The notes beneath the pieces are model-generated. The model was not told where the DNA came from, ran no database searches, and was given only the letters and a program-made list of their open reading frames with translations. Shown here piece by piece: positions 10,086-14,277 of a stretch of DNA of 64,000 nt. This DNA is from Deferribacterales bacterium (GTDB lineage Bacteria; Chrysiogenota; Deferribacteres; Deferribacterales; Geovibrionaceae). Position 1 is the first letter of the stretch; each line of letters opens with the position of its first letter. A program made the translations under genes and the position numbers. The stretch lies in NCBI GenBank assembly GCA_050251945.1, contig JBFWLW010000008.1:58538-122537 (forward strand), read 5' to 3'.

Positions 10086-10898
10086 TCAGCGGACGATGGT
10101 GTAAGTAACCGTATTGTCCGCCCAGTCCGACGGGTCGAGCCTGTTCAGCCTGCGGACGAGATCACTTATCATGCCCGTTGATGACGCGCTGTAGGTTATG
10201 AACATCCCCTCCTGAAAACCGAGGGTCAGAAGGTCGTCCTTCTTTTTCGTGGCGATTATTTTAATCTTTTCCTCGGCGGACTTACCCTTAAACCCCGGCA
10301 GAAACTGCGCCGTCAGCACAATTCTGCACTCGTTGTCCGGATAGACGTAAGTCTTTCCCTTCTGCGCAAAATTATTTCTCTGAACGCTGTTCGGCAGAAG
10401 AAGCGTAACAGAACCGTCCGTAGCTATTGAAAACAGATAGACGTAGGCATCCTCTGTCACTCTGTAGCTTATGCTGACAATTTCCCCCTGTTTGACCTGC
10501 GACCTCGACATGGCAAGGTCAACTGCAAAACCATCGGTTTTCTCCGGCTGATACGGTTCCACAACAGCCTTTATCCTCACCGTATACTCGCTGTTGCTCC
10601 CATGGGCAAACCCCTGCGAAATAATGTCGTATTTCAGTATGCGCCCCTTCACCGACGCATAGATGAGGTCTTCGGCAAGCTGACTGTTCTGCACAAGGGT
10701 TCTGGACTTTATAAATATCCCGCACGCCGTTTCAAGTGCGTTTCTGCGGGCATCGTTCAGGGCGCGCATGGCTGTCTCCTTCATGGTGTCGGAATCTCCC
10801 ATGACAGAAACACCGTCCGCCTCAACGGTTATAGTGTTTTCCGCACTGTGAGCTGCAAATGCGGCAAAAAGCAGCATGAGAAAGAGAAATCTTTTCAT
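10086..10898 (-). CDS. Exported protein: FlgT-N/LPP20-like N-domain plus DUF4384-like domain
   Basis: Signal peptide; AL.DARRNALE..G segment; GE...I......DAYVYLFSI..DGSVTLLLPN pattern typical of DUF4384. Confidence 0.7.
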   Translation of the reverse strand: MKRFLFLMLLFAAFAAHSAENTITVEADGVSVMGDSDTMKETAMRALNDARRNALETACGIFIKSRTLVQNSQLAEDLIYASVKGRILKYDIISQGFAHGSNSEYTVRIKAVVEPYQPEKTDGFAVDLAMSRSQVKQGEIVSISYRVTEDAYVYLFSIATDGSVTLLLPNSVQRNNFAQKGKTYVYPDNECRIVLTAQFLPGFKGKSAEEKIKIIATKKKDDLLTLGFQEGMFITYSASSTGMISDLVRRLNRLDPSDWADNTVTYTIVR

Positions 10899-12946
10899 CA
10901 GTACAGTTCCCCGAAACTCTTGTCGTCAATCTTTCCTTTAAGAAAAGCATCCATAAGTTTGGATTTCACTGGCTTTTTCAGCTCATCCATGCCTTTGGAA
11001 AGCTGAGCGGAGTTAATAAGCCCCTTTTCAAAGAGCGCTTTCAGTTTATTTTTCCCTGTCTCTTCGTCCATCAGTCTGGATTTTTCCCAGTTGCGGCTGA
11101 CAGTGAAATCACCGTTGCCTATCACCTGCGGATCCTGCTGCTGCCCTTTAAGCCGGAAAGCAGCCTTCGCAACGTTATTCTTTATGTATTCCGATATGTC
11201 GTTTATGGTCACCCATACGCCGCTTCCGCCTTTCCCTGTGAGTCCTTCCTTAAAGAAATGGCTGAACAGACCGGATTTATACTCGCTGTCGTCCTCCCAC
11301 GACTGCTGGTTTGCAGCCGAAGAGGTTATTATCACTCTGCCGGAACCCACTGTCTTTATTATGTCAGGTGCCGCCATCATACCCACAATTGGCTTGCCGC
11401 CCTTTGCCACGATGGATTTTCCGCTGCCTGTGAAACATGCATCGAGCGCAACAAGAACTCCCTTCGCGTTGGAGTTATCCACCATATCCTCAATATAGCT
11501 GACCCTGACCGCAGTGTCCGACAGCGAATCGGGATCGGAAAGAACGCTGTCATAGGGTACGATGAGCGCATCCGTTACTTTTTCGCCGGATGTGACAGGC
11601 GCTCCGTGACCGGAAAAATAGACATACATGTATCCGTCCCATGTCCTTATTTTGCGCAATGCCGCAACTATGTTGTTGCGGGTGGCGTTTTCGTTGAGCA
11701 GAAGAACCGCGTTCTCTTTGGGGATGCCGCCGTATCTTCTGTCCGTCAGTATGTTATATACGTCCTGCGCATCCGCAGAGGCGTATTTCAGTGTCGGTAT
11801 ATCGCTGCGACCTTTATAGTCTATACCTATCACCACCGCATAAGCGTCTGTTCTGTAAGGCGGCAGTTCGCTCTCTGCCGTCTGTGGTTCAGCAGCCGGA
11901 ACTGGAACTGCGGCATAGGTCTGCTGAGCGGGCTTGCCTGCGTCCGCAGTTGAGCCGAGCACCACGTCAAAATATGAAGGGCGGGTTCCGCGGATAACGT
12001 ACAGAGTTATCTTTGCGGACGGAGCCTGAGAACCTATGAATGAAACGAAATTTTCAGCGGAGGTCACAGGCGTTCCGTTGACATCGGCGATGATGTCGCC
12101 CGTGTGTATTCCGGCAGTTTCCGCAGGACTATTCGGCATTACACCGACGACCTCAACGCCGGACAGACCTGCCCTGAACCGCGTATTCGACGTGACCAGC
12201 CTTGTTATCATAAGCTGTTTTTCCGCGCTTAGAGCCTGAATATTCACACCGAGATATCCGCCGTTCTGCTGCACTGTCTGCGCGGTCTGCACAGGAGCGG
12301 CATAGGTCGGGAGTGCGGACGCAACCACAACCGTCGGCTGTTTTTTGAGATTGGAGGCATACGCCCTAAGCTCGCCGGAGAGCGCTATCTCCTCGTTCAG
12401 TTTTTTAAAGCAGGCGTCCATGGCAGCAGAGAGTGCCTCCGCCATAAGTGTTTTATACGGAATGACCGGAGATACCACCGACCTGCTCTCTTTCACGCTT
12501 CTGGCTGTGGTCTCCCAGATGGTCATACGGTTTTTATCGGTTACGGTGGCTTTTACACCGAGGTTAACGCGGTATTTCATTCCGAATCCTGCGGCAACCT
12601 GTACTCCTTCGAATGAAAAGTCCTGAACGTCAGCAGATATCAGCGCATCCACGTTATCAGGAAAACTGCCCGGCGCAGCCGCTACAGCCGATGTGAACGC
12701 AACCGGGAAATACTTTTTCTCCATGATCCTAAGATGTTTTCCGGAGGGAATATTCTCTGTGGCGCTGCCTATGACATAGGACTTAACCAGATTCTCATCG
12801 GGCAGCACGATACCCACCCGCATATTCACCGTGTTCACCCTGTCGGGCACAGAACCTGCGTTCTCCACCATGGGGACGTCTATGACACTTGCGCAGCCTG
12901 ACAGCATAACCATTGATAATATAAAAAAATATCTGAGCGTTTTCAT
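10898..12946 (-). CDS. Lipoprotein with PDZ domain and caspase-like (peptidase C14) domain
   Basis: Lipobox LSGC; PDZ (GYLGV...NSPAETAGIHTGDII..VNG); caspase YAVVIGIDY, YFSGHG (His), LDACFTG (Cys), SSAANQQS, GLFSH. Confidence 0.9.
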   Translation of the reverse strand: MKTLRYFFILSMVMLSGCASVIDVPMVENAGSVPDRVNTVNMRVGIVLPDENLVKSYVIGSATENIPSGKHLRIMEKKYFPVAFTSAVAAAPGSFPDNVDALISADVQDFSFEGVQVAAGFGMKYRVNLGVKATVTDKNRMTIWETTARSVKESRSVVSPVIPYKTLMAEALSAAMDACFKKLNEEIALSGELRAYASNLKKQPTVVVASALPTYAAPVQTAQTVQQNGGYLGVNIQALSAEKQLMITRLVTSNTRFRAGLSGVEVVGVMPNSPAETAGIHTGDIIADVNGTPVTSAENFVSFIGSQAPSAKITLYVIRGTRPSYFDVVLGSTADAGKPAQQTYAAVPVPAAEPQTAESELPPYRTDAYAVVIGIDYKGRSDIPTLKYASADAQDVYNILTDRRYGGIPKENAVLLLNENATRNNIVAALRKIRTWDGYMYVYFSGHGAPVTSGEKVTDALIVPYDSVLSDPDSLSDTAVRVSYIEDMVDNSNAKGVLVALDACFTGSGKSIVAKGGKPIVGMMAAPDIIKTVGSGRVIITSSAANQQSWEDDSEYKSGLFSHFFKEGLTGKGGSGVWVTINDISEYIKNNVAKAAFRLKGQQQDPQVIGNGDFTVSRNWEKSRLMDEETGKNKLKALFEKGLINSAQLSKGMDELKKPVKSKLMDAFLKGKIDDKSFGELY

Positions 12947-13767
12947 CAGTAGAGTTCTCCGAATTTTTTAGCGTCAATCTTATCGCTAAGGAACGATTCC
13001 AGAAGTTTTGACCTATCGCCGCCAAGCTCGCCGATGGCTTTGGTGAGCTGTGCGGAATCTATATATCCGTGTTCAAAGGCGGCGCGCAGTCTGTCTTTTT
13101 CCGTTGCGCCGTCCGGAACGTAGGGTTCCGGTTCAGGGACTTTCTCACCGGACTGCCCCCTGAGATAATTGCTGACGGCGTAGGAATTGAGCATACTATC
13201 CAGCGCTTTCATGAAAGCATCACCGGCGGCGGCATACAATCCGGTGTTCCAGACCTCCTGCGCCTTTTTTGTGTCGGTACAGCTGTATTCGACGTTGGAT
13301 ATGGACGAAACCGTGTCGGAGCGGTAAAGTTCGCGTCCGCTATTATCCATGAAGTGGGTGCGGAGGTTCAGTCTGGGTGTTACGCCGCAGGTGTTGAAAC
13401 CTCTGACTGTCGTATTGAAATCGAAATCGTGAAGCTCAACGGAGATTATTAGCCCTTTGTCCGAATTTGGTGACTGTAAAACCTCCGTTTCGGTGAAATA
13501 CTGCGGCAAAATATCTTTCGCAGCCTTATTTATCTGTTTAGCTATAGGCATGACCATAAGCTGCTTAACACCGGAACCGTTGTCTTCCAGCTTCTGCGAA
13601 GGGTTGTTCTCATCCATCGGCAGATACGCAGCCTTAACGTACATCTTCTGCATAGCGTGCGCGGCAGGAAGTTTGGATGCGGACACATCCTGATAGGGCA
13701 CTTCGTATCTGAAAGTACATGCGGAAATGACAAATGATACTAATAGAAAAGCGAAAATACGGAACAT
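12946..13767 (-). CDS. Lipoprotein paralogous to the N- and C-terminal domains of the adjacent caspase
   Basis: Lipobox ISAC; the last ~50 aa align with the caspase C-terminus and both end FGELY; TGATG coupling. Confidence 0.8.
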   Translation of the reverse strand: MFRIFAFLLVSFVISACTFRYEVPYQDVSASKLPAAHAMQKMYVKAAYLPMDENNPSQKLEDNGSGVKQLMVMPIAKQINKAAKDILPQYFTETEVLQSPNSDKGLIISVELHDFDFNTTVRGFNTCGVTPRLNLRTHFMDNSGRELYRSDTVSSISNVEYSCTDTKKAQEVWNTGLYAAAGDAFMKALDSMLNSYAVSNYLRGQSGEKVPEPEPYVPDGATEKDRLRAAFEHGYIDSAQLTKAIGELGGDRSKLLESFLSDKIDAKKFGELY

Positions 13768-13870
13768 TTCCCACCTATGTTTGTTTATTTATCTGATTGT
13801 ACCGCTGACTGTTTAAGAAATAAAGGGGTAGTTTTTATTAATGAGGTGGCTTCGAAAGAACTTAAATCTT

Positions 13871-14037
13871 CCGTCTTCGCAAGGGCTGTTCGCCTGACGC
13901 AACCTGAACCTTTCAGATTGCTTCGTCATTTCATTCCTCGCAAAGACGGAATAAAAATCACGTCTCTGCGAACCCCATAGGGGTGAAGCAGTCTCGTCTT
14001 TTTTCCATACGACATAACATATGAAAAATGCTCTAGA
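13871..14037. repeat. Cluster of three CGTC-type REP-like units in alternating orientation, ending in a TGCTCTA tail
   Basis: 13961-14037 is a close reverse-complement match to 20107-20180. Similar units occur at 32675 and 43315. Confidence 0.75.
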
Positions 14038-14276
14038 ACCAAGTAGTTCAGGGAAGATTTTGTGTTGCGAGCGAACAAAAGCTGACGACGAAATACGACG
14101 GTTATAAAAACCGATATTGTGTCGGCGATCAGATGCAAGCAGTACTGAGTGACCTGTCGGTTTTTAGAACCGAGCAGTTCGAGAAAGATTTTGCGAGGCG
14201 AGCAAAAGCGTACGTACTCTGTACGTGTTGCGAACGAACAAAAGCTGACGAAGAAATACGAAGGTTATAAAAAGCG
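14034..14276. repeat. Two direct copies of a TAGAACC...GGTTATA element separated by an inverted-repeat spacer
   Basis: Copy 1 at 14034-14113 and copy 2 at 14165-14276 share TGTTGCGA.CGAACAAAAGCTGACGA.GAAATACGA.GGTTATAAAAA. Copy 2 has a ~30-nt insert. The spacer is bounded by AAAAACCGA/TCGGTTTTT. Confidence 0.75.
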
Positions 14277-14277
14277 G

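Follow-up and report, generated by a model that had tools for sequence, protein, structure and literature searches.

A caspase-less paralog and its neighboring caspase, both predicted lipoproteins with a common, undescribed tail domain, in a Deferribacterales accessory cassette

We analyzed a 64,000-nucleotide stretch of the genome of a Deferribacterales bacterium (contig JBFWLW010000008.1, positions 58,538 to 122,537 of the forward strand), referred to here as the window, in which a three-gene cassette on the minus strand (10086–13767) encodes a short predicted lipoprotein (P0001), a predicted lipoprotein caspase (P0002), and a DUF4384 protein (P0003). P0001 belongs to the same modular family as P0002, as the initial annotation had claimed: its N-domain and C-terminal tail are homologous to those of its neighbor, and the caspase domain is absent. 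Judged by the sequence comparisons, P0001 appears to be an old second member of this family without its protease, and we put the probability at roughly 0.45 that it is a subunit of a periplasmic caspase complex and acts there, without catalysis, as a second sensor or a scaffold. The novelty lies in a caspase-less layout that recurs and in the undescribed tail, rather than in a demonstrated mechanism; the mechanistic steps beyond co-occurrence and conservation are those that we infer. The features of the cassette are as follows.

12946..13767, minus strand: short lipoprotein gene P0001 (273 amino acids), consisting of signal, N-domain, linker, and tail, without a protease domain
13717..13767, minus strand: predicted lipoprotein signal of P0001, with Cys17 invariant in 14/14 aligned short forms
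13153..13716, minus strand: N-domain of P0001 (residues 18–205), of a predicted PqiC/LptE/CsgG/PelC-type alpha/beta fold, "B" subfamily
13105..13152, minus strand: Pro-rich linker of P0001 (residues 206–221), variable and modeled with low confidence
12949..13104, minus strand: tail domain of P0001 (residues 222–273), four short helices with a conserved FGELY end, common to the caspase
10898..12946, minus strand: lipoprotein caspase gene P0002 (682 amino acids), consisting of signal, "A" N-domain, PDZ, Peptidase_C14 (His447, Cys504), and tail
12332..12892, minus strand: N-domain of P0002 (residues 19–205), a distant homolog of the P0001 N-domain
11942..12268, minus strand: HtrA-like PDZ domain of P0002 (residues 227–335)
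11123..11842, minus strand: Peptidase_C14 domain of P0002 (residues 369–608), with intact FSGHG and DACF motifs
10901..11059, minus strand: tail domain of P0002 (residues 630–682)
10086..10898, minus strand: third gene P0003 (270 amino acids), consisting of signal peptide, small N-domain, and DUF4384

P0001 is the first gene of the operon. Its stop codon overlaps the start of P0002 by one base, and the stop of P0002 overlaps the start of P0003 likewise, an arrangement of the translational-coupling type.

The likeness of the two N-domains was weak between single sequences (E 0.01 for the whole proteins and 0.16 for the N-domains alone) and clear between profiles. When a profile of P0001 with its six closest orthologs was used, the match had a probability of 35% (E 4e−4); the profile–profile comparison of nine short and five long sequences reached 94.3% (E 1e−7) over 171 columns at 18% identity, and in the controls a reversed profile gave 0.1% and the best of 30 column shuffles 1.1%. 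All four motif pairs from which the initial annotation had proposed this likeness stood in register in the profile–profile alignment. Furthermore, three bridging proteins (P0012, P0016, and P0042) were matched by the hidden Markov models of both N-domains (E ≤2e−8, Z = 1e6); secondary N-domain matches inside caspase domains arose from one wrongly trimmed training row and were disregarded. On these comparisons, the N-domains of P0001 and P0002 are distant but true homologs.

In the structure model of P0001, built from a 14-row alignment (mean predicted local distance difference test score [pLDDT] 84.7), the N-domain is alpha/beta, the linker is disordered, and the tail forms a helical unit of its own. 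Residues 20–205 of the model superposed on 2iqi with Z 11.7 (root-mean-square deviation 4.2, 155 aligned), and Z scores of 10.5, 9.9, 9.7, 9.1, and 8.8 were obtained with Cj1090c, CsgG, PelC, LptE, and PqiC, respectively. Nearly all of the top 20 rows of a structure search with the N-domain were envelope proteins of the PqiC/LptE/CsgG/PelC fold; Foldseek gave a best E of 3e−6. The N-domain of P0001 is thus predicted to adopt the fold of the outer-membrane lipoprotein group of PqiC (DUF330), LptE, CsgG, and PelC, and the same fold may be inferred for the N-domain of P0002 from its homology. Several outer-membrane lipoproteins of the PqiC-type fold form rings. The members include both ring formers (PelC is a dodecamer according to entry titles) and single barrel partners (LptE), and the oligomeric state therefore does not follow from the fold. 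Compared with the PqiC/LptE/CsgG/PelC/FlgT proteins, the P0001 N-domain differs in its low identity (5–14%) and its lack of a Pfam match.

Both proteins begin with a lipobox-like signal, which in P0001 was read by eye as ending in ISAC17; a lipobox-like Cys was found at the N-terminus of 14/14 short forms, and LPAM_1 weakly matched one relative. P0001 and P0002 are predicted to be lipid-anchored outside the cytoplasm. The linker of P0001 (4 prolines in 16 residues) coincided with a low-confidence stretch of the model. P0001 itself had no match in Pfam, PADLOC, or NCBIfam; its closest named relatives came from Seleniivibrio woodruffii, and an atlas search with the whole protein led to unnamed clusters in which 34% of members had Lipoprotein_16 and 33% had SHOCT, both taken as leads. 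In P0002, the match to PF00656 (Peptidase_C14, residues 369–608) scored 44.4 bits against a curated cut-off of 21.4, the His–Cys dyad was present (His447 in FSGHG and Cys504 in DACF), and the PDZ domain (about residues 227–328) exceeded its curated Pfam cut-off. The caspase alignment matched none of the solved structures at E 0.01.

The two proteins also resemble each other in their tails: residues 219–273 of P0001 and 627–682 of P0002 shared 30/56 identities (54%, E 2e−13). The tail modeled alone formed four short helices in 52 residues (pLDDT 83.3), and its positions were conserved alike in 24 short-form and 39 caspase tails, a Gln, a Phe, and the last Tyr occurring in all of them. The tail matches no curated family. 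Likeness to SHOCT (PF09851) was weak (5/36 tails, best E 0.0075, with P0001 and P0002 themselves unmatched), and by eye the tail resembles two helix hairpins in SHOCT register. None of the described EAD/bDLD families was among the 21 Pfam families matched by any of the 36 tails at E up to 5. Fold searches with the tail reached a best Z of 3.7, with no Foldseek match at E ≤0.001 and no convincing sequence match in the PDB, nulls that show neither a new fold nor the absence of a known one; an atlas search gave one match at 0.79. Weak matches to the N-termini of PilB/PilF suggested an MshEN cyclic di-GMP motif, a candidate that was set aside because its spacing is not the same and export of the protein is predicted.

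All three genes occurred in 5/63 genomes of the order, with the P0001 gene always directly upstream of the caspase and DUF4384 genes. Among 68 genomes of the phylum, the tail was found in the same five, exactly twice in each and once per protein, and no further copy of either N-domain or of the tail was found in the genome of the window. Four cassettes lie between pilC and ccdA and the fifth, from another genus (G021), at a different locus; in 5/5 cassette-free relatives examined, pilC adjoins ccdA and none of the three genes is present. Because the genes are present together and the sites in the relatives are empty, they move as one accessory unit, outside which the flanking cytochrome c and pilus genes lie. 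The unit is patchily present even within one genus, and the five cassettes count as one inherited unit, not as independent events. No relatives were found in viral contigs or plasmids. One empty site (L036, 6084–6344, genome G029) held an open reading frame of 86 amino acids, by eye of ParD-type antitoxin appearance, where the cassette is missing, so that the pilC–ccdA gap takes up varied accessory DNA.

The P0001 gene is under purifying selection. Where the synonymous rate could be estimated, the ratio of nonsynonymous to synonymous substitution rates (dN/dS) was 0.055 and 0.098 for the N-domain and 0.030, 0.055, and 0.141 for the tail. The tail was better conserved than the N-domain in 4/4 ortholog comparisons (94, 94, 73, and 52% identity versus 87, 72, 57, and 34%). 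These values bear on a reading in which a caspase was duplicated and the P0001 gene is one copy in decay. Tandem caspase duplicates are indeed common in the family, with 91–99% DNA identity over about 960 bp, and one short form, P0017, stops halfway through its tail on a 147-kb contig and is possibly broken; against this, the P0001 gene is intact in 5/5 cassettes from two genera, down to 34% N-domain identity and at dN/dS of 0.03–0.14. The dN/dS and identity comparisons largely refute decay, which we regard as hardly credible.

To place the short form within the family, an unrooted N-domain tree of 35 rows was used (3 of 38 rows, more than 95% identical, were removed). Caspase presence changed six times on this tree, and well-supported branches require at least four of the changes; the approximately unbiased test rejected the placement of all short forms in one clade (p-AU 7e−50). 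The protease domain has therefore been gained or lost repeatedly, at least four times, between the N-domain and the tail; gain and loss are indistinguishable because the tree is unrooted. Related pairs with and without the caspase were recovered over about 205 N-domain residues (P0016/P0015, 48%; P0019/P0035, 49%; P0017/P0011, 41%), as was a PEGA pair (P0038/P0022, 33% over 67 residues, E 1e−8). In a metagenomic locus that repeats the gene content and order of the cassette (L041), the first gene carries a caspase with an intact dyad. P0001 and its orthologs were sister to the group containing this first gene (97/99), and P0002 grouped with the second gene of L041 (96/95). A trimmed copy of the neighbor was considered as the origin of P0001 and rejected, as the DNA likeness between the two genes is limited to the tail (68% over 138 bp) and the tree separates their N-domains; P0001 is thus best viewed as an old second member of the family. 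In tandem caspase genes of other loci (L041, 2964–6592; L054, 7389–10751; L055; L059), the N-domains differ, and the protease and most of the tail are 91–99% identical in DNA (about 960 bp), which suggests gene conversion, recent module duplication, or an exchange of modules between neighbors in tandem arrays. The 99% identity seen in L041 is possibly an assembly artefact, although the cluster of its first gene has three members.

The initial annotation had proposed that the short protein may act with the caspase as an inhibitor, scaffold, or alternative sensor. A partnership is reasonable in that the gene is under purifying selection and travels with the caspase, but the protein is not derived from its neighbor and its N-domain is of another subfamily. 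As a decoy inhibitor, P0001 would fill tail or ring positions, separate the caspase domains, and prevent accidental activation. Its architecture is that of the caspase minus the protease, its gene comes first in the operon, the caspase-less form arose or was kept repeatedly, and there is a pseudo-caspase (P0015) of the same N-domain family, with Tyr in place of the catalytic His and Gly in place of the Cys and with N-domain and tail intact, which would parallel long cFLIP. However, a full N-domain of the other subfamily maintained by purifying selection is more than a decoy requires, the same slot is occupied by an intact-dyad caspase in L041 and L054–L059, and most family caspases have no such neighbor and hence need no adjacent inhibitor. 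Since cFLIP, too, arose from an active paralog, the decoy keeps some probability, but we consider it unlikely. The alternative sensor or scaffold fits better, given the intact-dyad caspase of the L041 counterpart and the different subfamily of the N-domain.

The wider family was surveyed with a profile search over 1.84 billion representatives, which returned 40 proteins: 18 tail-bearing caspases with varied N-termini (lipoprotein N-domain, TPR, WD40, ankyrin, PEGA, and PDZ), 16 caspase-less tail proteins or fragments, 3 caspase tail fragments, 1 N-domain with another C-terminus, and 2 probable chance matches (P0044 and P0046), which were dropped. The caspase-less forms include PEGA plus tail and DUF4410 plus SHOCT plus tail, so the layout is not restricted to one sensor. 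A search with the tail added nine proteins, all short forms and some of them named Syntrophales. The short forms P0013 and P0059, which differ from each other, are both assigned a longest contig of 62460 bases and may be paralogs on one contig. Scanning metagenomes with the caspase alignment yielded 42 loci, of which 39 (20 sequence clusters) had a tail-bearing caspase. A caspase was adjoined by a short form in a second, separate lineage (L047–L049), and tandem N-domain gene pairs combined one A-type with one non-A domain in 4/4 lineages. As a separate observation, L042, L043, L044, L054, L056, L075, and L080 contain clusters of exported caspase-like genes (two to five each, some with the tail and some lacking it), among other predicted lipoproteins and usually with one DUF4384 gene.

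Several results count against a dedicated partnership. A short partner lay near the tail-bearing caspase in only 3/39 loci (1/20 clusters) and in 1/16 of those flanked on either side by 1.2 kb or more; it is therefore optional. B-type caspases also occur alone (L056 and L075), so the A-plus-B pairing is not obligate. The genomic context of short forms was available for two lineages. In sequence, the tails do not clearly favor the caspase next to them over others, that of P0001 being 54% identical to its neighbor's and 58% to that of L076; their conservation is partly a selection effect, since the proteins were found through the tail itself. The weak likeness to SHOCT is the tail's only lead, and in the portions consulted, a SHOCT domain tested by experiment gave no support for self-association (PMC3581485) and SHOCT-like domains were proposed as membrane anchors (bioRxiv 2020.09.24.301986). 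Finally, the fold of the P0002 N-domain comes from homology and not from a model of its own. Several of these points would be expected if P0001 worked independently, with a tail that either stabilizes the protein or binds a shared target in the envelope (the membrane, the cell wall, or a factor for export or folding), and with the genes traveling together through a shared tandem-array origin and the same pathway. The scarcity of short neighbors, the lack of cognate specificity, the anchor proposal, the SHOCT domain that did not self-associate, and the occurrence of the tail on many unrelated N-termini (TPR, WD40, ankyrin, PEGA, PDZ, and DUF4410) all favor such independence. However, a general targeting tag would be expected on other envelope proteins as well, and in the 68 phylum genomes these two proteins alone carry the tail; the short form adjoins a tail-bearing caspase in both lineages of known context, and P0001 and P0002 already carry a predicted lipid anchor. 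Independent action is thus possible but somewhat doubtful. A complex prediction with the P0001 tail, which covered residues 353–682 of P0002 (caspase domain and tail) and left the PDZ and N-domains outside, gave scores of 0.00 and 0.00 and points neither way.

A subunit role for P0001 in a caspase complex draws on two observations: the tail is kept where there is no protease in the chain, and A and non-A domains are paired in 4/4 lineages, for which a tail that binds in trans is the simplest account. In the periplasm, P0001 would then assemble with the neighboring caspase; the tail carried by both proteins is the probable means, binding either another tail or the caspase. The A and B types of N-domain may co-assemble or sense different inputs, the clustering would bring caspase domains together, and the PDZ domain could serve as a further trigger. 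Docking of the last residues of the tail in the PDZ domain of the neighbor was also considered: the terminal Tyr is invariant, but the L047 caspase, which has a short partner, has no PDZ domain.

The DUF4384 protein would be a substrate or regulator of the protease domain. Its gene lies within 21/35 loci with at least 700 bp downstream, directly downstream of the caspase in 14 by the script rule; it is found behind caspases that have no tail as well, and L047, a locus with a short partner, lacks it (within about 8 kb on each side). For these reasons, the DUF4384 protein is disfavored as the partner of the tail and probably partners the protease domain itself. The N-terminal part of P0003 matches a protein of about 370 amino acids (C1:480266-480634 in the same genome), which is present in most genomes of the order and is possibly FlgT-like. 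No promoter-like site was found in the minus-strand region directly upstream of the cassette. The spacer there (13768–14277) carries short repeats that are scattered across most of the genome's contigs; among them is a direct repeat of 37 bases (14074 and 14237). They resemble repetitive extragenic palindromes or miniature inverted-repeat transposable elements.

When compared with known systems, the cassette is a member of none, and the likenesses, if our reading holds, are by analogy. Bacterial Peptidase_C14 homologs (orthocaspases and metacaspases) share with P0002 the C14 domain with its dyad, and with its relatives the WD40, TPR, and ankyrin domains; the constant C-terminal tail, the PqiC/CsgG-fold lipoprotein N-domain, and the dedicated caspase-less forms set the present proteins apart. 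Surveys of bacterial C14 peptidases describe, in the passages searched, varied accessory domains, likely signal peptides or exported forms, and an association with DUF4384, and those passages do not mention PDZ or the periplasm (PMC3501461, PMC7475262). In the sections consulted of Kaur et al. 2020 (PMC7159879), small helical domains common to the genes of an operon are proposed to serve bacterial caspase systems as adaptors that bind homotypically; as in those EAD and death-like systems, one small domain here occurs on separate genes of an operon, one of which encodes a peptidase effector. In contrast, the present tail has no Pfam match to an EAD or death-like family, is C-terminal, and is carried by predicted exported lipoproteins, and the cassette has no NTPase core. 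In the literature searched, no description of the cassette or the tail was found; the supplementary source data of Kaur et al. could list such architectures.

P0001 may also be likened to short cFLIP and CARD-only proteins, which are caspase paralogs without the protease that keep non-catalytic domains. Death-fold domains have six helices, and P0001 falls outside that definition: its tail has four helices in 52 residues, its N-domain is alpha/beta, and no death-fold model of Pfam was matched. It also differs in keeping what lies on either side of the protease, and its N-domain comes from another subfamily. A possible model for its action is NlpI, the lipoprotein adaptor of the periplasmic PDZ protease Prc in E. 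coli as described in the consulted part of PMC5686067, in that a lipoprotein would partner a periplasmic PDZ-bearing protease. Nevertheless, NlpI is a TPR protein unrelated to Prc, whereas P0001 is a paralog of its protease, and P0002 is a predicted lipid-anchored C14 cysteine peptidase.

With three genes, self-contained and patchily distributed within one genus, the cassette can be expressed whole and so offers a testable case for the role and activation of exported bacterial caspase homologs. If the tail is only an anchor, these proteins would be a modular lipoprotein family of an ordinary kind in which one domain is undescribed. On a broader and rather speculative view, anaerobic Gram-negative bacteria might possess a periplasmic caspase network in which the four-helix tail acts like a death fold, linking interchangeable sensors (lipoprotein rings, TPR, WD40, ankyrin, PEGA, and PDZ) to caspases, and in which caspase-less forms and dyad-less pseudo-caspases tune activation, a counterpart outside the cytoplasm, reached by convergence, to the short and long forms of cFLIP. 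Should the tail prove to be a homotypic adaptor, bacterial caspase biology would gain a new interaction domain, and protease-less caspase regulators would have arisen repeatedly and independently of the animal death-fold system.

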